IMG/VR virus record: IMGVR_UViG_2529293138_000006
Span: 1-18,936 of that record
Length of the DNA stretch: 18,936 bases
From: a virus
Taxonomy: Duplodnaviria; Heunggongvirae; Uroviricota; Caudoviricetes
Reading direction: 5' to 3' (one strand)
This document shows positions 1,370 to 15,452 of the stretch, piece by piece (the first letter of the stretch is position 1; every line of letters starts with the position of its first letter). A program made the translations under genes and the position numbers. Under the pieces are notes generated by a model. That model worked only from the letters and a program-made list of their open reading frames with translations. It had not been told where the DNA came from and ran no database searches.

Positions 1370-1508
1370 TTGTCCTCCTCTTAGCTGCTGAGGGAGTTTG
1401 TGACCGATATATCTGACATGATATTAAGCTCATGGCAGGTACATCTCTTGACTGGTCATAGAGATAAATTTAATGCTGAGAAATGCAGTATTGAATTTAT
1501 CAATTTTT

Positions 1509-1748: not shown

Positions 1749-1795
1749 TTTTACACCTCAGTTGGACGATGTTGAAATTTGCTGCTTTGAGGCCA

Positions 1796-2014: not shown

Positions 2015-2111
2015 CTTCCATTAATCCCTGAATTGTTGGTTAATACGCTTGAGGGTGAATGCGAATAATAAAAAGGAGCCTGTAGCTCCCTGATGATTTT
2101 GCTTTTCATGT

Positions 2112-2327
2112 TCACCGTTCCTTAAAGACGCCGTTTAACATGCCGATTGCCAGACTTAAGTGAGTCGGTGTGAATCCCATCAGCGTTACCGTTTCGCGGT
2201 GCTTCTTCAGTACGCTACGGCAAATGTCATCGACGTTTTTATCCGGAAACTGCTGTCTGGCTTTTTTGATTTCAGAATTAGCCTGACGGGCAATACTGCG
2301 AAGGGCGTTTTCTTGCTGAGGTGTCAT
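2112..2327 (-). CDS. Lambda orf61-like hypothetical protein
   Basis: Translation from the internal Met (MTPQQENALRSIARQANSEIKKAR...) matches my recollection of lambda orf61. The six-frame ORF extends to 2393, but the upstream 22 codons look non-genuine. Start choice is uncertain. Confidence 0.6.
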   Translation of the reverse strand: MTPQQENALRSIARQANSEIKKARQQFPDKNVDDICRSVLKKHRETVTLMGFTPTHLSLAIGMLNGVFKER

Positions 2328-2403
2328 TGAACAAGTCCCATGTCGGCAAGCATAAGCACACAGAATATGAAGCCCGCTGCCAGAAAAATGCATTCAGTGG
2401 TTG

Positions 2404-2595
2404 TCATACCTGGTCTCTCTCATCTGCTTCTGCTTTCGCCACCATCATTTCCAGCTTTTGTGAAAGGGATGTGGCTAACGTATGAAATTCTTCGTCTGTT
2501 TCTGCTGGTATTGGCACAAACCTGACTCCAATTTGAGCAAGGCTATGTGCCATCTCAATGCTCATTCTTAACTCAACAGGAGATGCTTTGTGCAT
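2404..2595 (-). CDS. Lambda orf63-like hypothetical protein (63 aa)
   Basis: Translation [23 protein letters not shown]... closely matches remembered lambda orf63; position between orf61 and orf60a as in lambda. Confidence 0.65.
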   Translation of the reverse strand: MHKASPVELRMSIEMAHSLAQIGVRFVPIPAETDEEFHTLATSLSQKLEMMVAKAEADERDQV

Positions 2596-2756
2596 ACAGC
2601 CCCTCGTTTATTATTTATCTCCTCAGCCAGCCGCTGGGCTTTCAGTGGATTTTGGATAACAGAAAGGCCGGGAAATACCCAGCCTCGCTTTGTAACGGAG
2701 TAGACGAAAGTGATCGCACCTACCCGGATATTATCGTGAGGATGCTTCATCGCCAT
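2568..2756 (-). CDS. Lambda orf60a-like hypothetical protein (62 aa)
   Basis: Translation [26 protein letters not shown]... matches remembered lambda orf60a; lies immediately downstream of exo with a short overlap. Confidence 0.6.
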
Positions 2757-3427
2757 TGCTCCCCAAATACAAAACCAATTTCAGCCAGTGCCTCGTCCAT
2801 TTTTTCGATGAACTCCGGCACCATCTCGTCAAAACTCGCCATGTAATTTTCATCCCGCTCAACCACGACATAATGCAGGCCTTCACGCTTCATTCGTGGG
2901 TCATAGTTGGCAAAGTACCAGGCATCTTTTCGCGTCACCCACATGCTGTACTGCACCTGGGCCATGTAAGCCGACTTTATGGCCTCGAAACCACCGAGCC
3001 GGAATTTCATGAAATCCCGGGAGGTAAACGGGCATTTCAGTTCAAGGCCGTTGCCGTCACTGCATAAACCATCGGGAGAGCAGGCGGTGCGCATACTTTC
3101 GTCGCGATAGATGATCGGGGATTCAGTAACATTCACGCCGGAAGTGAACTCAAAGAGGGCTCTGGCGTCGTTCTCGTACTGTTTTCCCCAGGCCAGCGCC
3201 TTAGCGTTAACTTCCGGAGCCACACCGGTGCAAACCTCGGCAAGCAGGGTGTGGAAGTAGGACATTTTCATGTCAGGCCATTTCTTTCCGGAGCGGGGTT
3301 TTGCTATCACATTGTGAACTTCTGAAGCGGTGATGACGCCGAGCCGTAATTTGTGCCACGCATCATCCCCCTGTTCGACAGCTCTCACGTCGATCCCGGT
3401 ACGCTGCAGGATAATGTCCGGTGTCAT
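2747..3427 (-). CDS. exo: Lambda exonuclease (Red-alpha, 5'-3' dsDNA exonuclease), 226 aa
   Basis: Translation is near-identical to lambda Exo along its whole length ([72 protein letters not shown]...GFVFGEQWR). Confidence 0.95.
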
Positions 3428-4209
3428 GCAGCCACCTTCTGTTCAGAGGCTTTCTGTTTCAGGAATCCAAGAGCTTTCACTGCTTCGGCCTGTGTCAGTT
3501 CTGACGATGCGCGAATGTCGCGGCGAAATATCTGGGAACAGAGCGGCAATAAGTCGTCATCCCATGTTTTGTCCAGGGCAATCAGCAGAGTGTTAATCTC
3601 CTGCATGGTTTCATCGTTAACCGGAGTGATGTCGCGTTCCGGCTGACGTTCTGCAGTGTATGCGGTATTTTCGACAATGCGCTCGGCTTCATCCTTGTCA
3701 TAGATACCCGCAAATCCGAAGGCCAGACGGGCACACTGAATCATGGCTTTATGACGTAACATCCGTTTGGGATGCGACTGCCACGGTCCGGTGATTTCTC
3801 TGCCTTCGCGGGTTTTGAATGGTTCGCGGCGACATTCATCCATCCACTCGGTAACGCAGATAGGATGATTGCGGTCCTTGCGGTAAATCCGGCATGTGCA
3901 GGATTCATTGTCCTGCTCAAAGTCCATACCATCAAACTGCTGGTTTTCATTGATGATGCGGGACCAGCCATCAACGCCCACCACCGGAACGATGCCGTTC
4001 TGCTTATCAGGGAAGGCGTAAATTTCTTTCGTCCACGGATTAAGGCCGTACTGGTTGGCGACGATCAACAATGCGATGAACTGCGCATCGCTGGCATCAC
4101 CTTTAAATGCCGTCTGGCGAAGAGTGGTGATCAGTTCCTGTGGGTCGACAGAATCCATGCCGACACGTTCAGCCAGCTTCCCAGCCAGCGTTGCGAGTGC
4201 AGTACTCAT
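3424..4209 (-). CDS. bet: Lambda Bet (Red-beta) single-strand annealing protein, 261 aa
   Basis: Translation matches lambda Bet along its length; stop overlaps the exo start, as in lambda. Confidence 0.95.
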
Positions 4210-4214
4210 TCGTT

Positions 4215-4511
4215 TTATACCTCTGAATCAATATCAACCTGATGGTGAGCAATGGTTTCAACCATGTACCGGATGTGTTCCGCCATGCGCTCCTGAAACT
4301 CAACATCGTCATCAAATGCACGGGTAATGGCTTTTTTGCTGGCCCCGTGGCGTTGCAAATGATCGATGCATAGCGATTCAAACAGGTGCTGGGGCAGGCC
4401 TTTTTCCATGTCGTCTGCCAGTTCTGCCTCTTTCTCTTCATGGGCGATCTGCTGGTAGTGACGCGCCCAGCTCTGAGCCTCAAGACGATCCTGAATGTAA
4501 TAAGCGTTCAT
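4215..4511 (-). CDS. gam: Gam (short form, GamS) RecBCD inhibitor, 98 aa
   Basis: Translation [60 protein letters not shown]... matches lambda Gam. AGGAG SD upstream of the ATG. The upstream frame contains TAA stops, so only the short form is encoded. Confidence 0.93.
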
Positions 4512-4586
4512 GGCTGAACTCCTGAAAATGGCTGTGAAAATATCGCCCGCGAAATGCCAGGCTGATTAGGTAAACAGGAAAGGGGA

Positions 4587-4793
4587 TTAGTGATTCAGAC
4601 CGTTGCCGCGCCCGTCGAGAAAAACTTCCACGAGCAAGTCACGGGTATAAGTGCGCTCGATGCCGCGATGCAGATAAAGCCGTCCGCGTAAATTAGCTGA
4701 TGCAGTCCAGGTACCATCTTTGTGTTTGACCAGCATTCCTGGCATGACCGCGCCGCGATTAACGGTCTGCGTTCCGTAATGTTGATGAACCAT
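4587..4793 (-). CDS. Hypothetical small protein (68 aa from the internal start; the ORF extends to 4877) at the kil/cIII position
   Basis: First ORF downstream of the predicted PL. The internal ATG at 4793 has an excellent SD (AGGAG, 5 nt spacer); the longer 96 aa form starting at 4877 has a poor SD. Sequence not recognised as lambda Kil, CIII or N. Confidence 0.5.
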   Translation of the reverse strand: MVHQHYGTQTVNRGAVMPGMLVKHKDGTWTASANLRGRLYLHRGIERTYTRDLLVEVFLDGRGNGLNH

Positions 4794-5070
4794 AAAAACT
4801 CCTGCCCGTAAGCTGGGCTGCTGAACATATAGAGACTTCTGCGCGTATTCAGGCGGTGGATGGCCGCCGGTTGTCATAACTAAGCCGCCTCGTTGAAGCG
4901 ACTAAGGTATGAAATGTTGAGTTGATTTCAGCTGGTCACACCGACGTTCACGCGTCCGTTTCACCCCTCGCACTCCCCGAAGCCTGCTGAAATTCAAACT
5001 GCGGATCTAAGCGGTCATCGCAACGGTGAATCAGGTGGTTGCCGTATCGTTGTGTTGTTGCGATGAACTT

Positions 5071-5099
5071 ATTTAAAACTATAGTTGTTTTACCGTCAA
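5071..5099 (-). promoter_or_regulatory. Candidate PL early-left promoter (-35 TTGACG, 17 nt spacer, -10 TTAAAT on the minus strand)
   Basis: Read on the minus strand: GTTGTTGACGG taaaacaactatagt TTAAAT. The -35 is embedded in a GTTGTT...AACAAC operator palindrome, mirroring the PR arrangement. Confidence 0.5.
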
Positions 5100-5127
5100 C
5101 AACAAAAGTTGTTTTATTGGTTGTTTT
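5082..5127. promoter_or_regulatory. OL-type operator cluster (GTTGTT-N8-AACAAC and AACAAC-N4-GTTGTT palindromes plus further GTTGTT half-sites)
   Basis: Repeated GTTGTT/AACAAC half-sites as inverted repeats, the same half-site as the perfect palindrome at OR (6876-6900). Confidence 0.5.
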
Positions 5128-5237
5128 AGATATAACTGGTTGTATTTAGGATGGATTTATTTTGTGACTTGCATCGCATAGCGATAACTGAAGTGAGGTC
5201 GTGGTGGTTTTTTGAACGGTGTGTGATGAGGGGAGGG

Positions 5238-5268
5238 CAAAAGAAAACCCGGCACGGTGGCCGGGTTT
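5238..5268 (-). terminator. Rho-independent terminator ending the leftward repressor/cargo operon (t-imm analog)
   Basis: Perfect 6 bp GC stem (CCCGGC / GCCGGG) with a 6 nt loop; on the minus strand it is followed by TTTTCTTTTG. Lies about 75 nt downstream of the stop of the 5343..5786 gene. Confidence 0.65.
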
Positions 5269-5342
5269 AGATGATTGGTTAAGAGCGAGGGTAATGGGGA
5301 ATGAAAAATCGCTTTACCTAATGCAAGGGTGCGAGCATTTTC

Positions 5343-5786
5343 TTAAGCACTAAAGAAAAAGTACATTGATAGCTTATAAAGTCCTGTTCCTGCAGCGATG
5401 ATTGCTGGAACACCAAGCAATACCGCAAGCTTTGCGTCTGAAATCTTTCTATCGACAGCATCACTTGATGGCTTGTTTGTTAAGGATTCTTTTATAGAGT
5501 CCAGACGTGCAAGAATAGTTATCATATTTTTGTCGATAGCTTTAACGTCTGTTTTAAGTTCATCAACGTCTCGTTTGATATGAGCAACATCGGACTCCAG
5601 TTTTGCAACTTTTTCAGGCATGTTATCACTCCCAGACCCACTGCTACCACTTGATTGTAGCATGTCCCATCTTTTTCCAGATATACCTGCTAGCTGGGAA
5701 GACGCACTGGAGTGCAAACAAAATGATTTTGCCGCCTTTGCAATTTTATCATTTAGGTTTGGAGCTTCGTAATAATCGTGTTTCAT
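5343..5786 (-). CDS. Hypothetical C-terminally membrane-anchored coiled-coil protein (147 aa; alternative start at 5621 gives 92 aa) in the rexB-equivalent position
   Basis: Single predicted C-terminal TM helix (LAVLLGVPAIIAAGTGLYKL) preceded by a heptad-like charged stretch (EKVAKLESDVAHIKRDVDELKTDVKAIDKNMITILARLDSIKESL). Internal ATG at 5621 has a GGGAG SD with a 7 nt spacer. AT-rich relative to flanks. Same strand as and downstream of the repressor. Confidence 0.6.
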   Translation of the reverse strand: MKHDYYEAPNLNDKIAKAAKSFCLHSSASSQLAGISGKRWDMLQSSGSSGSGSDNMPEKVAKLESDVAHIKRDVDELKTDVKAIDKNMITILARLDSIKESLTNKPSSDAVDRKISDAKLAVLLGVPAIIAAGTGLYKLSMYFFFSA

Positions 5787-5798
5787 AATTAATTACGA

Positions 5799-6062
5799 TT
5801 AGTTTGTTTTAGCTTTGTCATGCTGGTCGCGAATGAAGTCAGCCAATTTAAGCATCAATTCTTCGGGCATTCTAATGGTTGCAATGTTGTACTTTATGTT
5901 CTCAACATCGTCACTTTCATCAACAGGCCATTCAGTTACATTATGAAAAAAAGAAATTGAACCTAGGCGCTGAGAGCCGTCACCAAACGAAGAGTAGCCA
6001 AACGCGTCGGCGTATGCATCGACACAGTTATTTGATTTTTTAACAAGTGTTTTATTACTCAT
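5799..6062 (-). CDS. Hypothetical acidic soluble protein (87 aa) in the rexA-equivalent position
   Basis: ORF with a good SD (GGGAAAGG) about 6 nt upstream of the ATG; ends 12 nt before the next ORF (operon-like). AT-rich. Not recognised. Confidence 0.6.
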   Translation of the reverse strand: MSNKTLVKKSNNCVDAYADAFGYSSFGDGSQRLGSISFFHNVTEWPVDESDDVENIKYNIATIRMPEELMLKLADFIRDQHDKAKTN

Positions 6063-6144
6063 TTTTTGCCTTTCCCGTAATGTTATTTTTTATAAGGTAT
6101 TTTCTTCAGCGTATTACCCAAAAGCCTCATCAACACGCGGCTGA

Positions 6145-6834
6145 TTATCCGTGTTTTCTGTACGTCTGCGGCATGCTCCCAATAACCTTACCGAAGATGA
6201 ACACCCGGTTCATCTCGTCTTTCTCGATCGGGTCCCACGGTGAGTAGCTTTTGTTATCAGAGATGACCAGCAGCTTATCCTTCATCATTTGCAGGCGCTT
6301 TACATGGGCTGTGTCGTCGTACAGAAACGCATAGATACCATCACCGTCGAAAGATTTAACTGTGATATCAACGAACAGCAGATCACCTGGTTCGATCGTT
6401 CCTGACATGCTGTCACCACGCACGTTAATGATGCGGATATTTTCCGCCTTCCTACCATCGAACATATGACGAGCATCGTCAAACGAGTACTCAACCGAGC
6501 GTAGAACTTCTACAAACTCACGGTTGATGACTCCCGGCCCAGCACTGACTTCTATATCAAGAACGTCAATCTTGAAGTATTTGGAATGGCTGACAGTTGA
6601 TTGTATTGGTTGCACTGTACTGTCTGACATATTTCCAACGCCAGAAGATAACCATTCTGCGCGCACACCCAAAGCGTTCGCGATCTCCACGATTTTAGTT
6701 GTTTGATTAGCTTTCCCTGTTTCGATTTTCTGAATAGCAGCTTGGCTAACCCCGACCAAATCCCCAAGCGCCTTTTGTGTAAGGCCTCGCGCTAATCTGG
6801 CTTCTTTAAGTCTTTCTGAGAGTGTTGTTTTCAT
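6145..6834 (-). CDS. Prophage repressor, cI-type (N-terminal XRE-family HTH, C-terminal S24 LexA-like autopeptidase), 229 aa
   Basis: HTH region (LKEARLARGLTQKALGDLVGVSQAAIQKIETGK), an Ala-Gly cleavage site (EVSAGPG), the catalytic Ser motif (GDSMSG) and a downstream Lys (HVKRL). Start chosen at MKTTLSERL (6834) rather than the ORF-track start at 6900. Divergent from the Cro-like gene. Confidence 0.9.
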   Translation of the reverse strand: MKTTLSERLKEARLARGLTQKALGDLVGVSQAAIQKIETGKANQTTKIVEIANALGVRAEWLSSGVGNMSDSTVQPIQSTVSHSKYFKIDVLDIEVSAGPGVINREFVEVLRSVEYSFDDARHMFDGRKAENIRIINVRGDSMSGTIEPGDLLFVDITVKSFDGDGIYAFLYDDTAHVKRLQMMKDKLLVISDNKSYSPWDPIEKDEMNRVFIFGKVIGSMPQTYRKHG

Positions 6835-6875
6835 AGTCCAAATGTACAACCAAGGTTTTATTTCATCAAACGAAA

Positions 6876-6900
6876 ATGGTTGTTGACTAAAAACAACCAT
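6876..6900. promoter_or_regulatory. OR operator: perfect palindrome ATGGTTGTT-N7-AACAACCAT
   Basis: A 9 bp perfect inverted repeat with a 7 bp spacer, lying between the divergent repressor and cro-like genes and overlapping the -35 of the predicted PR. A weaker related site is at 6845-6858 (ACAACCaaGGTTTT). Confidence 0.6.
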
Positions 6901-6911
6901 AGTTTTAATCT
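6883..6911 (+). promoter_or_regulatory. Candidate PR promoter (-35 TTGACT, 17 nt spacer, -10 TAATCT)
   Basis: Hexamers with 17 nt spacing upstream of the Cro-like gene; GGAGG SD at 6927-6931 precedes its ATG at 6939. Confidence 0.5.
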
Positions 6912-6938
6912 TGATTCAAATTAACCACGGAGGTTGTT

Positions 6939-7169
6939 ATGAACCCAGCTATCAAAACAGCGATCAATATCGTTGGTTCACAAAAGAAACTGGGCGCTGC
7001 TTGCGAAGTTTCACAGCAGGCCGTCTATAAGTGGCTTCACAACAAAGCAAAGGTATCCCCTGAACATGTCGGCAGCATTGTTACGGCTACTGGTGGAGTA
7101 GTGAAGGCATACCAGATTCGCCCGGATCTTCCGAAGTTGTTTCCACACACCGAAAAGAACGCAGCTTAA
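6939..7169 (+). CDS. Cro-like / YdaS-family small HTH regulator (76 aa)
   Basis: Small ORF divergent from the repressor with a strong SD. A helix-turn-helix-like segment (QKKLGAACEVSQQAVYKWLHNK) is present. Role inferred from position. Confidence 0.8.
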   Translation: MNPAIKTAINIVGSQKKLGAACEVSQQAVYKWLHNKAKVSPEHVGSIVTATGGVVKAYQIRPDLPKLFPHTEKNAA

Positions 7170-7181
7170 ATTTCCATTTCA

Positions 7182-7194
7182 CGCTCTTTAACAA
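7182..7194 (+). promoter_or_regulatory. boxA-like element (CGCTCTTTAACAA) at the nutR position
   Basis: Matches the NusB/NusE boxA consensus (GCTCTTTAACAA) 12 nt after the Cro-like stop codon. No convincing boxB hairpin follows. Confidence 0.45.
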
Positions 7195-7238
7195 TAAGCA
7201 ATCAACTTAACAGTCAATTCAAACTAAAGGAGTCAATT

Positions 7239-7982
7239 ATGCAACCACTTACATACCAACAGACTAGCGGATTTAGCCCGACTGCGGTGATAAATCGTTC
7301 TCAAACAAAACAGGTGCCAGGCCACGAAAAAATCCGTGATGCCGTCCGCGCTTGGTCGGCTGAAGATAATCAGGATGTCGTTGCCACACTCATTGTGAAT
7401 GAGTATCGGGAGCAGGGCGGCGGCACCATCGATTTCCCTGATGATGTCAGCCGTGCACGCCAGAAGCTGTTCCGCTTCCTCGATAACAAATTCGATTCTG
7501 AAAAATACCGAAATAACGTGCGTGAACTGACCCCGGCAATTCTGGCGGTACTACCGCTGGAATATCGCGGCCACCTGGTTGAGCAGGATAGCTTCATGGC
7601 TCGGCTGGCTGAAATGGAAAAGGAACTCAGTGAGGCAAAGCAGGCGGTCATTCTCAACGCACCACGCCACCAGAAACTGAAGGAGATGAGTGAAGGCATT
7701 GTGTCGATGTTTCGAGTGGACCCGGATCTGGCTGGTCCATTGATGGCGATGGTCACCACCATGCTGGGGGCAATATGGCAGGTTCAAAAATGGCGAAAGT
7801 CGGTCTGCGGGAACAGAACCGACTTTCAGGTGCAAATCGTAACACACTCATTGCGGGAGGAATTATGGCAAACACTGCTGAGATATTCAATTTTCCAGTG
7901 CCGGATGCGGCACAAAAGGAGCCGCGCGTGGCAGATCTCGATGATTATACGCGCATTGCAAATGAGTTGCTGGAAGCTGTAA
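7239..7982 (+). CDS. Hypothetical protein at the cII position (possibly a CII/YdaT-like regulator); C-terminal extent uncertain
   Basis: ORF starting with a good SD (AAAGGAG) after the boxA region. The last ~70 codons overlap the O-like start by 118 nt and have an atypical W/Q/R/C-rich composition, suggesting either a shorter true gene or a frameshift. Confidence 0.45.
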   Translation: MQPLTYQQTSGFSPTAVINRSQTKQVPGHEKIRDAVRAWSAEDNQDVVATLIVNEYREQGGGTIDFPDDVSRARQKLFRFLDNKFDSEKYRNNVRELTPAILAVLPLEYRGHLVEQDSFMARLAEMEKELSEAKQAVILNAPRHQKLKEMSEGIVSMFRVDPDLAGPLMAMVTTMLGAIWQVQKWRKSVCGNRTDFQVQIVTHSLREELWQTLLRYSIFQCRMRHKRSRAWQISMIIRALQMSCWKL

Positions 7983-8791
7983 TGCTGGCCGGATTAACAC
8001 AGCACCAGCTTCTGGTCTTCCTGGCTGTCATGCGCAAAACATATGGCTTTAATAAAAAACTGGATTGGGTGAGCAACGAGCAACTTTCCGAGTTGACCGG
8101 GATATTGCCGCACAAGTGTTCTGCTGCAAAAAGTGTTCTGGTAAAGCGTGGGATTTTTATTCAGAGCGGGCGGAATATCGGCATTAATAATGTGGTCAGT
8201 GAATGGTCAACATTACCCGAATCAGGTAAGAAAAATAAAGTTTACCTGAAAGAGGTAAATTTACCTGAATCAGGTAAGAAAAGTTTACCCAAATCAGGTA
8301 AAGGCACTTACCCGAATCAGGTAAACACAAAAGACAAACTAACAAAAGACAATATAAAACCTTATTCGTCCGAGAATTCTGGCGAATCCTCTGACCTGCC
8401 AGAAAACGACCTTCCTGTGGTGAAAGCGGATGCTGCGATTCAGAGCGGCAGCAAGTGGGGGACAGCAGAAGACCTGACCGCCGCAGAGTGGATGTTTGAC
8501 ATGGTGAAGACCATCGCGCCATCAGCCAGAAAACCGAATTTTGCAGGGTGGGCTAACGATATCCGCCTGATGCGTGAACGTGACGGACGTAACCACCGCG
8601 ACATGTGCGTGCTGTTCCGCTGGGCATGCCAGGACAACTTCTGGTCCGGTAACGTGCTAAGTCCGGCCAAACTCCGCGACAAGTGGACCCAACTCGAAAT
8701 CAACCGTAACAAGCAACAGGCAGGCGTGACAGCTAGCAAACCAAAACTCGACCTGACAAACACAGACTGGATTTACGGGGTGGATCTATGA
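7865..8791 (+). CDS. O: Replication initiator, lambda O-like (308 aa), with an origin embedded in the coding sequence
   Basis: N-terminus MANTAEIFNFPV...ADLDDYTRIANELLEA...RKTYGFNKK resembles lambda O (MTNTAKILNF...). The C-terminal ~100 aa (NFAGWANDIRLMRERDGRNHRDMCVLFRWACQDNFWSGN...WIYGVDL) matches the lambda O P-interaction domain. GGAGG SD precedes the ATG at 7865. Confidence 0.88.
   Translation: MANTAEIFNFPVPDAAQKEPRVADLDDYTRIANELLEAVMLAGLTQHQLLVFLAVMRKTYGFNKKLDWVSNEQLSELTGILPHKCSAAKSVLVKRGIFIQSGRNIGINNVVSEWSTLPESGKKNKVYLKEVNLPESGKKSLPKSGKGTYPNQVNTKDKLTKDNIKPYSSENSGESSDLPENDLPVVKADAAIQSGSKWGTAEDLTAAEWMFDMVKTIAPSARKPNFAGWANDIRLMRERDGRNHRDMCVLFRWACQDNFWSGNVLSPAKLRDKWTQLEINRNKQQAGVTASKPKLDLTNTDWIYGVDL
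8213..8365. repeat. Replication origin: five ~18 bp iterons (TTACCCGAATCAGGTAAG type, each an internal palindrome) followed by an A/T-rich tract
   Basis: Iteron copies at 8213-8230, 8242-8258 (degenerate), 8261-8278, 8285-8302 and 8308-8325, followed by the AT-rich 8326-8365 (cacaaaagacaaactaacaaaagacaatataaaacc). Classic lambdoid ori architecture inside O. Confidence 0.8.
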
Positions 8792-9489
8792 AAAACATCG
8801 CCGCACAGATGATTAACTTTGACCGTGAGCAGATGCGTCGGATCGCCAACAACATGCCGGAACAGTACGACGAAAAGCCTCAGGTACAGCAGGTAGCGCA
8901 GATCATCAATGGTGTGTTCAGCCAGTTACTGGCAACTTTCCCGGCGAGCCTGGCTAACCGTGACCAGAATGAACTGAACGAAATCCGCCGCCAGTGGGTT
9001 CTGGCTTTCCGGGAAAACGGGATCACCACAATGGAACAGGTTAACGCTGGAATGCGCGTAGCCCGTCGGCAGAATCGACCATTTCTGCCATCACCCGGGC
9101 AGTTTGTTGCATGGTGCCGGGAAGAAGCATCCGTTATCGCCGGACTGCCAAACGTCAGCGAGCTGGTTGATATGGTTTACGAGTATTGCCGGAAGCGAGG
9201 CCTGTATCCGGATGCGGAGTCTTATCCGTGGAAATCAAACGCGCACTACTGGCTGGTTACCAACCTGTATCAGAACATGCGGGCCAATGCGCTTACTGAT
9301 GCGGAATTACGCCGTAAGGCCGCAGATGAGCTTGTCCATATGACTGCGAGAATTAACCGTGGTGAGGCGATCCCTGAACCAGTAAAACAACTTCCTGTTA
9401 TGGGCGGTAGACCTCTAAATCGTGCACAGGCTCTGGCGAAGATCGCAGAAATTAAAGCTAAGTTCGGACTGAAAGGAGCAAGTGTATGA
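8788..9489 (+). CDS. P: Lambda P replication protein (DnaB helicase loader), 233 aa
   Basis: Translation is near-identical to lambda P over its full length; ATG overlaps the O stop (ATGA). Confidence 0.95.
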   Translation: MKNIAAQMINFDREQMRRIANNMPEQYDEKPQVQQVAQIINGVFSQLLATFPASLANRDQNELNEIRRQWVLAFRENGITTMEQVNAGMRVARRQNRPFLPSPGQFVAWCREEASVIAGLPNVSELVDMVYEYCRKRGLYPDAESYPWKSNAHYWLVTNLYQNMRANALTDAELRRKAADELVHMTARINRGEAIPEPVKQLPVMGGRPLNRAQALAKIAEIKAKFGLKGASV

Positions 9490-9788
9490 CGGGCAAAGAG
9501 GCAATTATTCATTACCTGGGGACGCATAAGAGCTTCTGTGCACAGGACGTTGCCGCGGTAACAGGCGCAACCGTAACCAGCATAAATCAGGCTGCGGCTA
9601 AAATGGCGCGGGCAGGAATCCTGGTCGTTGATGGTAAGGTCTGGCGAACGGTGTATTACCGGTTCGCTACCAGAGAAGAACGGGAAGGAAAGGTGAGCAC
9701 GAATCTGATTTTTAAGGAGTGTCGCCAGAGTGCCGCGATGAAACGCGTATTGAGGGTATATAAAAGAACATCAATGGGTACACAATGA
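9486..9788 (+). CDS. ren: Ren (Rex exclusion protein), 100 aa
   Basis: Translation MTGKEAIIHYLGTHKSFCAQDVAAVTGATVTSINQAAAKMARAGILVVDGKVWRTVYYRFATREEREGK... matches lambda Ren; overlaps the P stop. Confidence 0.9.
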   Translation: MTGKEAIIHYLGTHKSFCAQDVAAVTGATVTSINQAAAKMARAGILVVDGKVWRTVYYRFATREEREGKVSTNLIFKECRQSAAMKRVLRVYKRTSMGTQ

Positions 9789-9855
9789 TGAAACAGGTGA
9801 GTTGATTTCAAACTGTAGTACAATTCTCTCCAGTTTGAACAGGAAAGAATATGCT

Positions 9856-10188
9856 ATGAACCCTTATATTTATCTTGGTGGTGCAATACTTGCAGAGGTC
9901 ATTGGTACAACCTTAATGAAGTTTTCAGAAGGTTTTACACGGTTATGGCCATCTGTTGGTACAATTATTTGTTATTGTGCATCATTCTGGTTATTAGCTC
10001 AGACGCTGGCTTATATTCCTACAGGGATTGCTTATGCTATCTGGTCAGGAGTCGGTATTGTCCTGATTAGCTTACTGTCATGGGGATTTTTCGGCCAACG
10101 GCTGGACCTGCCAGCCATTATAGGCATGATGTTGATTTGTGCCGGTGTGTTGGTTATTAATTTATTGTCACGAAGCACACCACATTAA
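9856..10188 (+). CDS. emrE: EmrE small multidrug resistance (SMR) efflux transporter, 110 aa
   Basis: Translation from MNPYIYLGGAILAEVIGTTLMKFSEGFTRLWPSVGTIICYCASFWLLAQTLAYIPTGIAYAIWSGVGIVLISLLSWGFFGQRLDL... matches E. coli EmrE. Four TM helices are evident. Same location (after ren) as in the DLP12 prophage. Confidence 0.93.
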   Translation: MNPYIYLGGAILAEVIGTTLMKFSEGFTRLWPSVGTIICYCASFWLLAQTLAYIPTGIAYAIWSGVGIVLISLLSWGFFGQRLDLPAIIGMMLICAGVLVINLLSRSTPH

Positions 10189-10217
10189 AATAATTTGTTT
10201 CTAAACGACTAAAATAT

Positions 10218-10250
10218 GGAGGCTCTTATATTTATATGAGCCTCGTTTTA
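10218..10250 (+). terminator. Rho-independent terminator downstream of emrE
   Basis: Perfect 7 bp stem GAGGCTC...GAGCCTC with a 12 nt AT loop, followed by GTTTTATGCTTTTTG. Confidence 0.6.
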
Positions 10251-10442
10251 TGCTTTTTGTTAATGTCTTTATTTTTTATGTATTCTTTTGTGCTTTCAAG
10301 ATTATGGCGTAAGAAAATTGCAATACGATTATTGTTGTATATTCAAGATAATGTGACCTTAATTGTCTTTTTAAATAAAAATTAAACAAAAATTATATCC
10401 CACCACTAAGGTTTATAAAAGCATACGTTAGCAGGTGTCACC

Positions 10443-11969
10443 ATGAAAAAAGCCATAGCATATATGCGATTTTCATCACCAGGTCAGATGTCTGGCGACT
10501 CATTAAACCGACAGAGAAGACTTATTGCTGAATGGTTAAAGGTAAATAGTGATTATTATCTTGATACCATAACATATGAAGATTTAGGATTAAGTGCATT
10601 CAAAGGAAAGCATGCACAATCAGGAGCTTTTTCGGAATTTTTAGATGCTATAGAGCATGGTTATATATTGCCAGGAACTACATTGTTAGTTGAAAGTCTG
10701 GACAGACTTTCAAGAGAAAAAGTCGGTGAAGCGATTGAGCGTCTGAAATTGATTTTGAATCACGGTATTGATGTTATAACTCTTTGCGATAATACAGTCT
10801 ATAATATTGACTCTTTGAATGATCCATATTCATTAATAAAAGCCATACTTATAGCACAAAGGGCAAATGAAGAAAGCGAGATAAAGTCAAGTCGGGTTAA
10901 ATTATCATGGAAGAAAAAACGGCAGGATGCACTGGAGTCAGGCACGATTATGACGGCGTCTTGTCCGAGATGGCTCTCCTTAGATGACAAAAGAACGGCT
11001 TTTGTTCCAGACCCCGACAGGGTGAAAACTATTGAGCTAATTTTTAAACTCAGGATGGAAAGGCGCTCATTGAATGCAATAGCCAAGTATTTAAATGATC
11101 ATGCTGTAAAGAATTTCTCAGGAAAAGAAAGTGCATGGGGACCTTCTGTAATTGAAAAATTATTAGCGAATAAAGCTCTGATAGGTATATGCGTACCTTC
11201 ATATCGTGCAAGAGGTAAAGGAATAAGTGAAATCGCTGGCTATTATCCCAGAGTCATATCAGATGATTTGTTTTACGCTGTGCAGGAAATTCGGTTGGCA
11301 CCTTTTGGTATTAGCAATAGTAGCAAAAATCCTATGTTGATAAATCTACTTCGAACAGTTATGAAGTGCGAGGCTTGTGGTAATACCATGATTGTTCATG
11401 CGGTATCTGGAAGTTTGCATGGCTATTATGTTTGTCCGATGAGAAGACTGCATCGATGTGACAGGCCATCAATAAAGAGAGATTTGGTTGATTATAATAT
11501 CATTAATGAGTTGCTTTTTAATTGTAGTAAAATCCAACCAGTTGAAAACAAGAAAGATGCTAATGAAACTTTAGAGTTGAAAATTATTGAGCTCCAGATG
11601 AAAATTAATAATTTAATTGCTGCATTATCTGTTGCGCCTGAAGTTACCGCTATAGCAGAAAAAATCAGAGTATTAGATAAGGAATTACGAAGGGCTTCTG
11701 TATCATTAAAAACTTTGAAGAGTAAAGCGGTGAGCTCACTTGGTGATTTTCATGCTATTGACTTAACCAGTAAAAATGGGCGAGAGCTATGTCGTACACT
11801 TGCCTATAAAACATTCGAAAAAATCATAATCAATACAGATAATAAAACCTGTGATATCTATTTTATGAATGGCATTGTTTTTAAACACTACCCTTTAATG
11901 AAAACAATATCCGCCCAGCAGGCGATAAGTACTCTCAAATATATGGTTGATGGTGAGGTTTATTTTTGA
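10443..11969 (+). CDS. ybcK: Large serine recombinase (DLP12 YbcK-like), 508 aa
   Basis: N-terminal resolvase-type catalytic region with the serine motif (AIAYMRFSSPGQ), a long recombinase domain and a Cys-rich segment (CEACGN...CPMRRLHRC) consistent with a zinc ribbon. AT-rich codon usage. Confidence 0.85.
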   Translation: MKKAIAYMRFSSPGQMSGDSLNRQRRLIAEWLKVNSDYYLDTITYEDLGLSAFKGKHAQSGAFSEFLDAIEHGYILPGTTLLVESLDRLSREKVGEAIERLKLILNHGIDVITLCDNTVYNIDSLNDPYSLIKAILIAQRANEESEIKSSRVKLSWKKKRQDALESGTIMTASCPRWLSLDDKRTAFVPDPDRVKTIELIFKLRMERRSLNAIAKYLNDHAVKNFSGKESAWGPSVIEKLLANKALIGICVPSYRARGKGISEIAGYYPRVISDDLFYAVQEIRLAPFGISNSSKNPMLINLLRTVMKCEACGNTMIVHAVSGSLHGYYVCPMRRLHRCDRPSIKRDLVDYNIINELLFNCSKIQPVENKKDANETLELKIIELQMKINNLIAALSVAPEVTAIAEKIRVLDKELRRASVSLKTLKSKAVSSLGDFHAIDLTSKNGRELCRTLAYKTFEKIIINTDNKTCDIYFMNGIVFKHYPLMKTISAQQAISTLKYMVDGEVYF

Positions 11970-12081
11970 GTAATAATCACTTTTTTCAACCGTGCTATAG
12001 TAAGAAAGTTAGGTAAGTACAATAAAATTATCTATCCTGAACGAAGCGTCCTGAGCTATGGTTTTACTATAGGGACTGCCA

Positions 12082-12411
12082 ATGGATGCTGGCGTTCTCG
12101 TTCTAGCAGTTCAACAATCCCCAATCACAAAACAATTCACTGATAACGAACTTTGCACACTCGCCTGGTTATGGCGAGCAGGGAATGTGATGTTAATTGC
12201 CTACCAGAACGTTACTCATCTTCTTCAGGATGCGGAGCATGGTGAAGCTGGTCGCTTCACTTCCATCGAGCAAGAATATCCCCAGATACTCACCAGAGCG
12301 CGAGCAATCCTCGCCAGAGAAACGGCACATGTAAAATTCCAGCCGTGGCAGGATGATAAGTGGAGTCGAGTATTGCCACATTTGCGTCAGAATGTTATTA
12401 AACAACGTTAG
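12082..12411 (+). CDS. Hypothetical protein (109 aa)
   Basis: ORF only; weak SD. Not recognised. Could be a gene remnant. Confidence 0.35.
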   Translation: MDAGVLVLAVQQSPITKQFTDNELCTLAWLWRAGNVMLIAYQNVTHLLQDAEHGEAGRFTSIEQEYPQILTRARAILARETAHVKFQPWQDDKWSRVLPHLRQNVIKQR

Positions 12412-12470
12412 CTACTGTGTCTCTCCAATTTAGCTAACATATGGATTCATAAGAAAAAGGAGCTTTTGCC

Positions 12471-12722
12471 ATGATGTCCTTCACCAAATGTAAATTAATG
12501 CACAGCCATAAAACTAGCGTAAATGCAGCGCTCTTGGACGATACGAAATTAGTTGTAGAGAGGGATCTCCATTTTCTTCGTGAGTTATACATATCAAGCC
12601 CAGAAGAATTTGTCGGACATTGGGTTTATGCAAATGAGCCAATATTTCATGAACATCCACTGTCTGTTGGCCTTTCTGGTATTGTCTATCACAAGGTTAT
12701 TGATGAAATTGAAAAATCATAA
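12471..12722 (+). CDS. Hypothetical protein (83 aa)
   Basis: ORF with a good SD (AAGGAG, ~8 nt spacer). Not recognised. Confidence 0.45.
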   Translation: MMSFTKCKLMHSHKTSVNAALLDDTKLVVERDLHFLRELYISSPEEFVGHWVYANEPIFHEHPLSVGLSGIVYHKVIDEIEKS

Positions 12723-12892
12723 TCAATAAGCAATAATACCGTCACCGTTGGCCTGAACACCCTGCGGTGACTTCTGCGCATATGATTGGGAAATTATATG
12801 CGACCACAAGTTAAACTCCTCGCCTTGCCACAGATGCAGAAATGCACCTGCGTTTTTTTGCATCCAACGTTTGACCTCTGCGGAGGTGAAGC

Positions 12893-13348
12893 GTGAACCT
12901 CCCACAAGACGGCATCAAATTACATCGCGGCAACTTCACCGCTATCGGCCAGCAGATCCAGCCTTATCTGGAGGACGGAAAATGCTTTCGCATGGTGCTT
13001 AAACCGTGGCGTGAGAAACGCAGTCTTTCCCAGAATGCACTCAGCCACATGTGGTACAGCGAAATCAGTGAATACCTCATCAGCAAGGGTAAAACGTTCG
13101 CCACTCCAGCTTGGGTAAAAGATGCTCTCAAACACACATATCTCGGTTATGAAACCAAAGACCTGGTTGATGTCGTAACCGGTGATATCACCACTATCCA
13201 GTCGTTACGCCATACCTCCGATCTTGATACCGGAGAGATGTATGTCTTCCTGTGTAAGGTTGAAGCCTGGGCGATGAATATTGGCTGCCACCTGACTATT
13301 CCGCAGAGCTGCGAGTTCCAGCTGCTGCGCGACAAGCAGGAGGCGTAA
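12893..13348 (+). CDS. ybcN: NinB-family recombination protein (DLP12 YbcN-like), 151 aa, GTG start
   Basis: Translation matches remembered DLP12 YbcN ([19 protein letters not shown]...). GGAGG SD 6 nt upstream of the GTG. Confidence 0.85.
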
Positions 13349-13518
13349 TGGCTACACCGCTTATTCGTGTCATGAACGGACACATCTACAAAGTACCAAA
13401 TCGTCGTAAGCGTAAACCTGAGCTGAAGCCATCCGAAATACCAACACTGCTCGGATATACCGCCAGCCTGGTTGATAAAAAATGGTTGCGACTGGCAGCA
13501 AGGAGGAATCATGGCTGA
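13348..13518 (+). CDS. ninE: NinE-like small basic protein (56 aa)
   Basis: Manually translated: [59 protein letters not shown] overlaps the ybcN stop (TAATG). Below the ORF-track size cutoff. Confidence 0.6.
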   Translation: MATPLIRVMNGHIYKVPNRRKRKPELKPSEIPTLLGYTASLVDKKWLRLAARRNHG

Positions 13519-13801
13519 TTTGAGAAAAGCAGCGCGTAGTCGGGAATGCCAGGTAAGAATCCCTGGCGTATGTAATGGCAACCCTGAAACGTCTGTACTG
13601 GCACATATCCGGCTGACTGGATTGTGCGGCACCGGTACCAAACCGCCAGACTTGATTGCCACCATTGCATGTTCTGCCTGCCACGACGAAATCGACCGCC
13701 GCACACATTTTGTCGATGCTGCATATGCAAAAGAATGCGCGCTGGAAGGTATGGCGAGAACACAGGTTATCTGGCTGAAAGAGGGGGTTATTAAGGCGTG
13801 A
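13511..13801 (+). CDS. ybcO: YbcO-like protein (DUF1364 family, putative nuclease), 96 aa
   Basis: Start chosen at [10 protein letters not shown] with an AGGAGG SD; Cys-rich translation ([11 protein letters not shown]...CSACHDEID) matches remembered DLP12 YbcO. Confidence 0.75.
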
Positions 13802-14160
13802 ATACCTACAGCATCACATTACCTTGGCCTCCGAGCAATAATCGCTACTACCGGCATAATCGCGGGCGCACGCACATCAGCGCAGAAGGGCAGGCATACC
13901 GTGATAACGTCGCCCGAATCATTAAAGGCTCAATGCTGGATATCGGCCTGGCTATTCCTGTGAAAATCCGCATAGAGTGCCACATGCCGGATCGCCGTCG
14001 CCGTGACCTGGATAATCTGCAAAAAGCCGCTTTTGACGCACTCACTAAAGCAGGTTTCTGGCTGGATGATGAGCTGGTCGTTGATTACCGCGTTGTGAAG
14101 ATGCCTGTTACCAAAGGTGGGAAGCTGGAACTGACCATCACTGAACTGGGAGATGAATGA
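13798..14160 (+). CDS. rusA: RusA Holliday junction resolvase, 120 aa, GTG start
   Basis: Translation [26 protein letters not shown]...[27 protein letters not shown]... matches E. coli RusA. Confidence 0.9.
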
Positions 14161-14297
14161 TGTTTGAGTCTTGTATGGCAGAACGTCTTCGCCGCCGCTG
14201 GGTGCGCCTGCGCTTATATCGTTTCCCCGGTTCTGTTTTGACCGATTACCGAATACTGAAGAATTACGCCAAAACCCTGACAGGAGCAGGAGTATGA
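14157..14297 (+). CDS. ylcG: YlcG-like small protein (46 aa)
   Basis: Manually translated: [46 protein letters not shown]. Overlaps the rusA stop. Matches remembered DLP12 YlcG. Confidence 0.6.
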
Positions 14298-14382
14298 AGT
14301 CAGAGATAACAATCAACTAATACTGTTTTGTTGATTTTTGCTTGTAATTGGCGTTCTGGTCTGATTTTTGTGGAGTAAGTTG

Positions 14383-14727
14383 ATGCGTGATATGTATGAA
14401 GTTTTGGATCGCTGGGGGGCATGGGCTGCAGCAGATAACAGTGGTGTGGACTGGCAGCCGATAGCAGCAGGCTTCAAGGGGCTTTTACCTCATGGCAAAA
14501 AGTCCCGGATGCAGTGTGATGATGATGAAGGTCTTATGATTGATGGATGTGTGGCGAGGTTGCGTAAATATAAGCCAGAAGAATATGAGCTACTAATTGC
14601 CCACTTTGTTATTGGGATCTCATTACGCACCATTGCTAAGAAAAGAAAATGCTCTGATGGCACAATTAGGAAGGAGTTGCAAACTGCAGTAGGATTTATA
14701 AACGGTGTAATGTCAGTATTTAAATAA
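14383..14727 (+). CDS. Late-gene antiterminator Q-like protein (DLP12 QuuD-like family), 114 aa
   Basis: Position (last gene of the nin region, before the lysis genes), a Cys/His cluster (CDDDEGLMIDGCVARL...) and resemblance to remembered QuuD. Start chosen at ATG 14383 (GGAGT SD) rather than TTG 14368. Confidence 0.75.
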   Translation: MRDMYEVLDRWGAWAAADNSGVDWQPIAAGFKGLLPHGKKSRMQCDDDEGLMIDGCVARLRKYKPEEYELLIAHFVIGISLRTIAKKRKCSDGTIRKELQTAVGFINGVMSVFK

Positions 14728-14745
14728 GCGCCAATTAAGGCGCTT
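14726..14745. terminator. Hairpin between the convergent Q-like and minus-strand cargo genes (possible bidirectional terminator)
   Basis: AAGCGCC-AATTAA-GGCGCTT inverted repeat overlapping both stop codons. T-tracts are short, so efficiency is uncertain. Confidence 0.4.
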
Positions 14746-15298
14746 TAAATGGAACGGGAACCTGTAAAGCGTTAGCAGCTATCTCAACTATTTTCTCGTT
14801 TGGAATATTTGCTAATATAAAGCGTTCCCTTTCTTGTAAAATTTTGTTTATAACGTAATACACGCTTAACATGCTGAACAACATTGATTCTTCCTTTGCT
14901 TTGCAAGAATAGTTATCCACTTTCCAGTTTTCAGACACATAGTCATATTTTGATTTAATTTGCTTTGATAGTAATAGAACATTTTTTAATGCTATTCGAG
15001 TGTCTCGATTGTAGTAAGAGTAAATATTATCTATGTTCTTCTCTAGAATAATTGGTTCAAACGTTTTCCCTAAAGAAATATACTGAAAATCTTTGGGTTT
15101 AAATGTGCGTTCTTTTATGCTTTTGCTAGTGGTTTTGATAGATTTCTCTAGTATTGATAATTCATCCTCTAACTCAGTGAATATGCTTTTTTTTAATGTT
15201 TTTATCTTTTCTTTTTCCTTTCTAGACTCAACATATGGCGCTAGTATAATACCCAAAAGAAAAGTGGTAAAAGGAATTAAGCTTTTGATAATGTCCAT
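14735..15298 (-). CDS. Hypothetical membrane-anchored, Lys/Glu-rich protein (187 aa); AT-rich moron
   Basis: N-terminal hydrophobic helix (LIPFTTFLLGIILAPYV), then a highly charged, low-GC body. AGGAAA SD before the ATG. Opposite orientation to the late operon. Confidence 0.6.
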   Translation of the reverse strand: MDIIKSLIPFTTFLLGIILAPYVESRKEKEKIKTLKKSIFTELEDELSILEKSIKTTSKSIKERTFKPKDFQYISLGKTFEPIILEKNIDNIYSYYNRDTRIALKNVLLLSKQIKSKYDYVSENWKVDNYSCKAKEESMLFSMLSVYYVINKILQERERFILANIPNEKIVEIAANALQVPVPFKAP

Positions 15299-15412
15299 GG
15301 TTTCCTTATTTTTTCATATGATTAACGCTAGGAAAATATGATAATAAAAAACTAACGCGTACGCAAAAATTATTGTATCGTGTTAAGAGTGGTTACTTTG
15401 TCACGTGGCTTA

Positions 15413-15440
15413 AGCCCGCCGTCGAGCGGGTTTCGTCGTT
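15413..15440 (+). terminator. Rho-independent terminator-like hairpin (candidate tR')
   Basis: GCCCGC-CGTCGA-GCGGGT stem-loop followed by TTTCGTCGTTT on the plus strand, immediately before a G9 homopolymer. Confidence 0.5.
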
Positions 15441-15452
15441 TGAGGGGGGGGG

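Follow-up and report, generated by a model that had tools for sequence, protein, structure and literature searches.

Anatomy and likely origin of the emrE–ylcJ–ybcK cargo block in a DLP12/Perceval-type lambdoid prophage

The 18,936-nt stretch of tailed-phage DNA analysed here (IMG/VR record IMGVR_UViG_2529293138_000006, positions 1 to 18,936; hereafter the window) comes from a prophage that is best described as a mosaic relative of the DLP12/Perceval type. Between ren and the ninB-like gene ybcN it carries the efflux pump gene emrE, the small open reading frame (ORF) ylcJ, and ybcK, which encodes a 508-amino-acid large serine recombinase. The block is the well-known emrE–ylcJ–ybcK cargo of DLP12/Perceval-type lambdoid phages of Escherichia coli and is already documented; what is new here is descriptive, namely the module boundaries, a comparison with an empty site, the integrase behaviour of the relatives of YbcK and the selection statistics, and no new system is involved. 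The ylcJ–ybcK segment is probably the leftover integrase end of a former element, held in a block that has become fixed in phages of this type, with YbcK a functional orphan whose target lies elsewhere.

Anatomy and known status of the cargo slot

The interval 9790–12892 fills exactly the gap from the stop codon of ren (9788) to the start of ybcN/ninB (12893). An initial annotation of the window had described about 3 kb of AT-rich DNA between ren and ybcN, and this is borne out with its coordinates exact: GC content is 0.380 in the interval, against 0.467 in the remaining window and approximately 0.50 in the adjacent flanks. The dip is uneven (0.40 in the emrE module, 0.349 in ylcJ–ybcK, and 0.418 in the module to their right), and GC at third codon positions is 0.29 in ybcK and 0.35 in emrE, compared with 0.56–0.61 in P and ybcN. 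Comparison with variants in which the island is missing or altered separates module A (emrE, 9779–10190), module B (ylcJ–ybcK, 10191–11978), and a variable module C (11979–12720); the island is one slot with three modules of differing histories, not a single unit. The features of modules A and B are as follows.

9779–10190, plus strand: emrE module (promoter region and emrE), 92.5% identical to positions 5001–5412 of the locus L006 from strain CFSAN061772
9807–9839, plus strand: hairpin-flanked promoter-like element upstream of emrE, TTCAAACTG-tagTACAAT-...-CAGTTTGAA
9853–10188, plus strand: emrE, SMR multidrug/quaternary-cation efflux pump of 110 amino acids (PF00893, E-value 2e-35; phrog_1395, moron category)
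10189–10208, plus strand: putative relic resembling a half-site, AATAATTTGTTTCTAAACGA, at the left edge of the ylcJ–ybcK insertion
10219–10258, plus strand: terminator-like hairpin 3' of emrE, GAGGCUC...GAGCCUC followed by a U-rich tail, covering the ylcJ start codon
10236–10385, plus strand: ylcJ, small hydrophobic ORF of 49 amino acids (PF23688, E-value 2e-35)
10309–10442, plus strand: conserved ybcK leader, a constrained non-coding/ylcJ 3' region with a nucleotide diversity (pi) of 0.012–0.02
10443–11969, plus strand: ybcK, intact, large serine recombinase of 508 amino acids with Resolvase, Recombinase, and Zn_ribbon_recom domains
11970–11985, no strand: breakpoint zone; the K-12 type parts from the window type at 11978, 9 bp past the ybcK stop

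The initial annotation had called emrE and the 508-amino-acid recombinase correctly; its two small unknown ORFs proved to be a fragment of a rha antirepressor gene and an ORF of phrog_9613, and ylcJ had been overlooked. PADLOC, consulted for an anti-phage defence role, gave zero matches for any island protein, Rfam gave zero structured-RNA matches in 9600–13000, and internal sigma-70 promoters numbered 14 against 11.3 expected, which is uninformative.

Over approximately 4 kb, the region shares 99.2% identity with an argU-associated prophage in E. coli SE11, and at least 80% of 9400–13400 is present in 1,328 of the 5,426 complete E. coli genomes that formed the survey set. K-12 DLP12, whose order is ren–emrE–ylcJ–ybcK–ybcL–ybcM–ybcN, has the slot, the genes, and the left junction as in the window, with 97.5% nucleotide identity over 9575–11978 and a shared downstream nin/Q/lysis block; ren, emrE, ylcJ, ybcK, and the nin/lysis block are 95–97.5% identical, so that the DLP12 arrangement described in the initial annotation is confirmed. 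DLP12 differs from the window in having IS3 in ren, no immunity or replication region, and IntD at a tRNA-Arg gene, whereas in the window the integrase is Perceval-like, the early regions are complete, and ybcL–ybcM are absent. The window is itself mosaic: 1–5265 is 96.8% identical to Perceval and has no match to SE11 intD, while SE11 is the best match for the island and the nin region. The complete-looking phage context holds as well, though it was already known from 12 deposited lambdoid coliphage genomes that carry the island at 95–98% identity alongside a tyrosine integrase/excisionase: Turner, Perceval, 4A7 (two records), Lambda_4C10, 1W, 3W, D2, PhiR34_1, PhiR47_2, PhiR68_2, and PhiR70_1. 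These phages share ren–emrE–(ylcJ)–ybcK with the window and differ in the cargo to the right of ybcK. The record of Perceval, an experimentally active, virion-producing prophage of LF82 (PMC9928086), labels the gene "Large serine recombinase, DLP12 prophage YbcK homolog", apart from its tyrosine integrase and excisionase.

EmrE matches PF00893 over residues 4–95, has Glu14, and begins with MNPYIYLGGAILAEV; the SE11 copy at the matching position (WP_001070442.1) is named EmrE by RefSeq. The promoter-like element upstream is an inverted repeat with 12-nt arms, 92% complementary, around a spacer with a pi of 0.005; it is kept in a chromosomal emrE islet next to fliE (see below) and probably serves as the emrE promoter. 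The hairpin after emrE folds as RNA at −15.5 kcal/mol (z −2.58), and its pairing is retained in O157 through changes in both arms. In LF82, emrE is transcribed from the Perceval prophage and induced in Dulbecco's modified Eagle medium (DMEM) (PMC9928086), and erythromycin selection leads to amplification of DLP12 and emrE (PMC8382913). The promoter-like element, the terminator hairpin, a GC content of 0.40, and the reported Perceval expression together mark emrE alone as a moron, while ybcK is not listed as expressed in the lysogen. Within the block, lysogenic conversion falls to emrE, and the earlier view of the pump as a conversion trait agrees with these literature reports; as a classic moron, it would give the lysogen cation/drug efflux. 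Like the lambdoid morons (lambda bor and lom, and those of HK97), it is a low-GC, self-contained transcription unit among conserved phage genes, but here the cargo is an SMR efflux pump physically joined to an orphan integrase gene.

The empty form, YbcK, and the variable right side

The emrE gene runs directly into ybcL, with neither ylcJ nor ybcK, in 2,619 of the 5,426 genomes (approximately 48%). In the empty locus that was inspected (CFSAN061772, L006 5001–7153), emrE–ybcL–ybcM lies in the core chromosome next to fliE, a location known from this one locus. Against this form, K-12 DLP12 has a 2,084-bp insertion starting 6 bp past the emrE stop, where the empty form has only CATCC, and the homology of the window's emrE module to the islet ends 2–6 bp past that stop. 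Judged from these alignments, ylcJ–ybcK (approximately 2.1 kb) appears to be a clean insertion that splits an emrE–ybcL–ybcM cassette just past the emrE stop. The fliE islet runs from 9 bp before the ren-stop position to the ybcN start codon, matches the window at 9779–10190 and 12829–12895, and is AT-rich (GC 0.36–0.42). Because the edges of the phage ren–ninB slot are present in it, the islet is probably phage-derived, which suggests that emrE–ybcL–ybcM is a fossilised phage cargo cassette. Phage-borne emrE and ybcL–ybcM have diverged by 8–11% from the fliE-type copies, so the split between the two forms is old.

The ylcJ–ybcK segment was found in 1,426 of the 5,426 genomes (approximately 26%), and a probe of emrE, ylcJ, and the ybcK 5' end was contiguous in 1,399 genomes, compared with 1,400 that hold the intact module. 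A scan of viral contigs for distant contexts gave only near-identical E. coli copies, which were used as a population sample (80 IMG/VR contigs); in all 77 of these with a usable flank, the left flank of ybcK is emrE in the ren–ybcN slot.

YbcK has the Resolvase (PF00239, E-value 5e-19), Recombinase (PF07508, 2e-14), and Zn_ribbon_recom (PF13408, 8e-8) domains of a large serine recombinase. Across an 18-member family alignment and 32 E. coli protein alleles, residues R9, S11, Q15, D87, R88, and R91 are invariant, as are the zinc-ribbon cysteines C309, C312, C331, and C339. The first set corresponds to R8, S10, Q14, D67, R68, and R71 of gamma-delta resolvase. A search of solved structures with the single YbcK sequence gave nothing, and a family profile was required; the profile found SPbeta SprA (1e-18, aligned over SprA residues 142–515), the A118 integrase (7e-15, residues 37–318), and the phiC31 integrase too. 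Since the catalytic and cysteine residues are invariant and the profile finds serine integrases, YbcK is a bona fide large serine recombinase. SPbeta SprA, the Listeria A118/LI integrase, and phiC31 Int share with it the three-domain architecture, the catalytic Ser/Arg set, and the four-Cys zinc ribbon at less than 30% identity. These enzymes adjoin their own attP and are the sole integrase of their element, whereas YbcK has no detectable partner sites and lies mid-genome in a phage with another integrase.

Pairwise synonymous divergence (dS) among the window, K-12, E1, and Perceval alleles of ybcK is 0.11–0.18, except for E1 versus Perceval (0.04), and the ratio of nonsynonymous to synonymous divergence (dN/dS) is 0.06–0.08 in every pair, falling to 0–0.02 in the Recombinase domain and reaching 0.15–0.18 in the C-terminal tail. 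In the 80 contigs, which are best protein matches and hence biased to intact copies, 79 ybcK ORFs are intact, with 48 nucleotide alleles and 93 synonymous versus 39 nonsynonymous segregating sites. With its ORF intact, its catalytic and zinc-ribbon residues kept, and strong purifying selection, YbcK does not, as far as sequence can tell, look dead. Disrupted copies do occur, including a frameshift in O157:H7 EC4115, insertion sequence (IS) insertions, and a deletion in O104:H4 that joins emrE' to 'ybcK, and they might speak for a neutral, decaying pseudogene-to-be that hitch-hikes with emrE. Such a history is hardly credible, being contradicted by the selection statistics; at the observed divergence, a neutral 1.5-kb ORF should hold many stops and frameshifts.

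Diversity is distributed unevenly over the two genes. Among 61 unique haplotypes, third-position pi is 0.014 in emrE versus 0.052 in ybcK, approximately fourfold lower in emrE, and within ybcK the dS between window and K-12 is 0.03 in the first third and 0.27 in the zinc-ribbon/coiled-coil part. From these two contrasts, homologous recombination breakpoints inside and between both genes are concluded.

The region 5' of ybcK is constrained too, with approximately 130 bp whose diversity is two to four times under neutral. The ylcJ frame that overlaps it is shifted in SE11 and in strain c1-17, and the O157 copy is shortened by a 10-bp deletion; the conserved feature around the ylcJ start may be an RNA or leader element rather than a small protein. 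In K-12, a Rho/NusG-dependent terminator, tybcK, lies within the untranslated region 5' of ybcK, and Rho or NusG mutants de-repress the gene (PMC4150792). In LF82, the Perceval ybcK is not among the lysogen-expressed genes (PMC9928086). In BL21(DE3), ybcK overexpression raised sabinene tolerance by 128% and knockout lowered it (PMC7181518), a phenotype that could point to co-option for a host-beneficial, non-recombination role in stress or solvent tolerance or in regulation. Co-option of this kind is quite improbable, since the published phenotype is based on T7 overexpression and comes without a mechanism, neither the 32 protein alleles nor the wider family vary in the catalytic residues, lysogens keep the gene silent, and ybcK is found on plaque-forming phages as well as on cryptic prophages.

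To the right of ybcK lie module C, its boundary, and the conserved phage genes, listed here together with the other flanking genes of the prophage.

12082–12411, plus strand: 3' fragment of a rha/ant antirepressor gene, a 109-amino-acid P22AR_C ORF (PF10548, E-value 2e-13)
12471–12722, plus strand: ORF of 83 amino acids (phrog_9613, E-value 1e-41; no Pfam match)
12703–12735, no strand: right boundary where all variants re-converge, with the near-palindrome TTTGATTTTG.AAAATCAA in most variants
12893–13348, plus strand: ybcN (NinB-like), opening the conserved nin block (RefSeq ybcN annotation; weak NinB Pfam match)
9486–9788, plus strand: ren, annotated as "protein ren" in SE11, K-12, and Perceval
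1–1143, minus strand: lambda-type tyrosine integrase of the prophage (PF09003 and PF00589), Perceval-like and not the IntD of SE11 and K-12

The last entry bears out the separate tyrosine integrase reported earlier for the prophage. The last approximately 36 nt of ren (from 9752) are unlike those of island-free relatives, and homology to the island-free prophage L003 stops at 9752. At the DNA level, the 109-amino-acid ORF is 88% identical to the 3' portion of the 250-amino-acid Rha gene of phage PhiR5_1, and it is a fragment because PhiR5_1 holds the full-length rha in the corresponding slot. The 83-amino-acid ORF was found in SE11 and in none of the 80 sampled viral contigs. Module C takes the following forms.

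Window and SE11: rha antirepressor 3' fragment and 83-amino-acid ORF
K-12: approximately 300 bp and ybcL–ybcM
E1/Perceval: rha' piece and an alpha/beta hydrolase gene on the opposite strand
O157: a short stretch of unique sequence
O104:H4: rha' followed by a 169-amino-acid ORF

In the 80 contigs, the rha' type numbers approximately 46, the K-12 type 22, the hydrolase type 10, and the O157 type 2. To the right of ybcK, similarity to the window is lost at 12036 in the O157 type and at 12253 in the E1/Perceval type, and homology is regained at 12718–12741 by variant, mostly at 12719–12721, 5' of a small ORF and ybcN. The right side thus has at least five variants and the left is always ren–emrE wherever visible, so that the alternative of ancient cargo with fixed boundaries and no target sites, which the initial annotation had also allowed for, fits the left side largely and fails on the variable right.

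Two sequence features mark the right boundary. The near-palindrome TTTGATTTTG(N)AAAATCAA bounds the slot in L002, L003, L004, L006, L007, and L100, including the chromosomal fliE islet, and may serve to bound modules or to bind a protein. A perfect 17-nt direct repeat, AAAAATCATAATCAATA, stands at 11819–11835 in the 3' part of ybcK and at 12712–12728 on the boundary; its chance expectation is, by a rough estimate, well under 0.01, and it has no counterpart in other variants. Its copies are in different reading frames, so it does not reflect protein homology, and the leftover-integrase explanation leaves it unaccounted for.

Serine recombinases beside variable cargo are often invertases, and a 14–15-nt inverted repeat pair lies at the ybcK stop and further down- or upstream, so YbcK might flip an adjacent promoter or cargo segment. 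This role, also raised by the initial annotation, is extremely improbable and finds no support, because all modules have a single orientation in 80 of 80 contigs and the inverted repeats, which are short and AT-rich with one arm within ybcK, do not exceed chance. Pin (e14), Gin (Mu), and Cin (P1) share the serine catalytic domain and the prophage-borne setting with YbcK, but they are of approximately 190 amino acids (as is the Hin type) with a C-terminal helix-turn-helix and act on inverted crossover sites around tail-fibre segments, whereas YbcK has the large serine integrase architecture at 508 amino acids and no invertible segment.

Other AT-rich patches are found in the window at 14600–15450 (GC 0.34) and 5000–6100 (GC 0.40). 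The former lies 3' of the Q antiterminator gene, where SE11, K-12, and Perceval carry an nmpC-type porin; 14600–15450 and 15643–16191 hold a 187-amino-acid ORF without a Pfam match and a 182-amino-acid DUF2441 ORF, both on the minus strand, and this patch is a further cargo slot whose content differs from that of the relatives. In the latter, two minus-strand ORFs without Pfam matches (147 and 87 amino acids; 5343–6062, GC approximately 0.40) lie just downstream of the CI-type repressor gene (6145–6900) and share its strand. The slot by the CI-type repressor gene frequently holds exclusion or defence cargo in lambdoid phages.

Relatives of YbcK and the junction beside emrE

YbcK homologs of 39–60% identity are found throughout Enterobacterales. 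The most informative is a 509-amino-acid paralog in E. coli FDAARGOS_944, with approximately 44% identity to YbcK over residues 1–310 compared, whose gene starts 40 bp from the edge of a degraded prophage of approximately 15 kb that precisely splits the mdtG ORF (L097, 20259–35456; also L037, from Shigella flexneri). The attB within mdtG (L098, 2059–2062) includes GTCTTCAGCATTAC, the prophage attL and attR share only the 4 bp TCAG, and the reconstructed attP (GTGTATTTAGGGAACAAATATCAGTATAATGGGTTCCTAAACAC), GTGTATTTAGGGAAC...GTTCCTAAACAC, has a dyad of 15/22, above a null with a mean of 11.1 of 22 and a 95th percentile of 13. This prophage type is present in just 17 complete E. coli genomes. The paralog is like YbcK in length and domains, its gene reads inward from the left junction, and its P' arm resembles the ybcK junction; unlike YbcK, it has both junctions, a 4-bp overlap, a dyad attP, and an interrupted host ORF, as befits a real integrase with its element attached. 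With att sites that can be defined, it is a candidate new serine integrase, and enzymes of the YbcK family with such sites could serve as genome-engineering tools.

In the subfamily of 39% identity (Serratia fonticola, L030; Mixta, L032), the recombinase gene abuts a T2SSE-type ATPase gene cut to its C-terminal 166 amino acids, with a T2SS-F gene beside it and two tandem AbiTii abortive-infection genes and a small resolvase gene downstream (approximately 8300–14500). ORF sizes and spacing in Leclercia (L031) and Rahnella (L033) are as in Serratia and Mixta, apparently the matching layout, and the neighbourhood looks like an integrative defence islet in a secretion/pilus ATPase gene. A 60% homolog in an Atlantibacter genome lies 540 bp from the ssrA 3' end, convergent with it. 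The Erwinia, Ewingella, Yersinia, and Citrobacter homologs follow tail-fibre genes, sometimes with umuDC-like genes between, which would be the usual int/attP place on the lambdoid vegetative map. Pairs of umuD-like (Peptidase_S24) and umuC-like (IMS) genes were seen between the tail-fibre genes and the recombinase in L019, L020, and L021 (Enterobacteriaceae G50, Ewingella), and in Atlantibacter (L011) and Erwinia (L014) the recombinase has shorter UmuD-like ORFs at its flanks. A Duffyella plasmid has a lone homolog amid metabolic cargo. The recombinase gene is of low GC in most prophage contexts; as a family-wide trait, low GC was rejected, the Pantoea and Duffyella copies not being low. Taken together, the relatives behave as real phage or island integrases that target ORFs (mdtG, the secretion ATPase gene) or the vicinity of ssrA.

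At the left edge of the ylcJ–ybcK insertion, AATAATTTGTTTCTAAACGA shares 14 of its 20 positions with the attL P' arm of the mdtG paralog (TATAATGGGTTCCTAAACAC), in the same register from the junction. Its pi of 0.055, against a neutral benchmark of 0.052 (third codon positions of ybcK), is that of drifting sequence, and it is degenerate in O157. No cognate attP/attB or attL/attR pair (an imperfect dyad of approximately 40–50 bp about a 2-bp crossover) was found at ybcK beyond this half-site-like relic, which weakens the case for an active integration module in the window but leaves the protein's family membership unaffected. When the K-12 insertion ends were joined under three junction models, dyads of 11–12/22 resulted, no excess over the null mean, and a repeat search of 9700–12950 for att sites gave only short AT-rich repeats at chance level besides the 17-nt direct repeat; the motif GTTYCTAAAC occurs in the window at its chance count. 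Since the relic is half-site-like only, drifts neutrally, and has no partner site, the segment cannot excise, and at most a fossil attL half-site persists beside emrE.

These results also bear on whether ylcJ–ybcK could be a complete, still mobile single-gene mini-element. It is compact (approximately 2.1 kb), an imperfect direct repeat TTAAAA(AA)TAA lies at its flanks, and relatives are often solitary, with 0.5 kb or less of private flank in unrelated contexts such as the Duffyella plasmid. Against this, the joined ends carry no dyad above chance, the junction motif drifts neutrally, the segment is emrE-linked in 1,399 of 1,400 genomes and seen nowhere else in E. coli, and the right end of the K-12 insertion is missing in most variants, which diverge 9 bp past the ybcK stop. 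Neither occupied and empty forms at more than one locus nor two recombinase-recognised ends were found, only one relic end, and present mobility is very unlikely.

Origin and role of YbcK

The directly observed anatomy, distribution, breakpoints, and selection, along with the integrase behaviour of the relatives, are most readily explained by a history of integration followed by truncation. The interval is a hypervariable cargo slot that runs from ren to ninB (ybcN) in a lambdoid prophage of the DLP12/Perceval type, and in it a serine-integrase element would once have integrated a few base pairs past the emrE stop of a phage-borne emrE–ybcL–ybcM cassette. The element would then have lost all but its integrase-bearing left end, ylcJ–ybcK, the decaying half-site-like sequence marking the event, and the segment would now move within E. 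coli solely as fixed phage cargo, without excision. The DNA to the right of ybcK would be filler swapped by recombination, here the 5'-truncated rha and the 83-amino-acid ORF. The phage itself integrates by its own tyrosine integrase, and YbcK is redundant for integration because the phage has that enzyme. Two earlier suggestions that had been put forward as alternatives suit this account at different times: the remnant of a nested mobile element fits the origin, given the clean emrE–ybcL insertion, the relic half-site, and the integrase paralogs, and a domesticated or retained cassette fits the present state, with its intact ORF and low dN/dS.

Expression would also be phage-timed. The leader terminator reported from K-12 silences the gene in lysogens, and ybcK is therefore most likely expressed only under N-type antitermination, by read-through from pR; YbcK would be an early phage gene product acting on a DNA target beyond the island.

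Several points weigh against this account. The 14/20 score of the half-site is matched by shuffled sequences and is no better than the best chance match in the window; the likeness was spotted post hoc, and its position alone is significant. Up- and downstream of 27 family members, the motif GTTYCTAAAC was seen only at ybcK and the mdtG paralog. On its right, the K-12 insertion ends within approximately 5 bp of the expected attR and yet has no P-arm there, and for a random deletion to end so near the original site would be a coincidence. That YbcK still recombines DNA is an inference, and the expression timing is carried over from the K-12 and LF82 papers rather than taken from the window phage. 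Finally, in lambdoid prophages of Atlantibacter RC6 and Ca. Pantoea alvi, the YbcK homolog comes right after O/P, and its identity to the window runs parallel to that of P (recombinase/P 60%/58% in Atlantibacter RC6 and 49%/46% in Ca. Pantoea alvi), a parallel divergence more in keeping with long residence in the nin region than with a single chance integration.

The last observation opens the main alternative, a rather unlikely one, in which YbcK has long been a working part of the nin region, for example a second integration system for an alternative attB or an early recombination function, passed on together with the replication module, and ordinary mosaic shuffling accounts for the look of an insertion. 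The layout of Atlantibacter RC6 (O–P–...–Dcm methylase–large serine recombinase–...–DUF1367–NinG–Q) and the Pantoea alvi homolog adjoining P would accord with it, as would the tracking of the two identities, the purifying selection on all domains that is strongest on the DNA-binding Recombinase domain, the constrained leader, and the co-orientation of ybcK with the pR operon behind a Rho-dependent terminator like other nin genes. On the other side, no attP-like dyad adjoins ybcK, neither a permuted prophage nor an emrE-unlinked copy appears among the approximately 1,400 genomes, the orientation in Pantoea alvi is reversed, the composition of the gene is foreign to E. coli and to Atlantibacter alike, and the interruption of emrE–ybcL is clean at base level. 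The broader statement, that YbcK is a live early serine recombinase long kept in a post-replication (nin) slot across Escherichia, Atlantibacter, and Pantoea, is doubtful. If it were true, the target of live YbcK could be a secondary attB that stands in for an unavailable tyrosine-integrase site, or a sequence carried by a rival phage or a resident element, and otherwise lambda-like phages, including that of E. coli K-12, would have a second, cryptic site-specific recombination system.

With the leftover integrase end as the preferred explanation, the object itself is ordinary, emrE and ybcK on DLP12 being textbook K-12 annotations. That emrE, a model multidrug transporter, exists in two states in E. 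coli, phage-borne with ybcK and in the emrE–ybcL–ybcM islet, bears on how the pump has spread. The interest of the block rests on the function of an intact orphan recombinase, encoded in K-12 as well, that is under strong purifying selection and has no visible substrate sites, a question that is directly testable.

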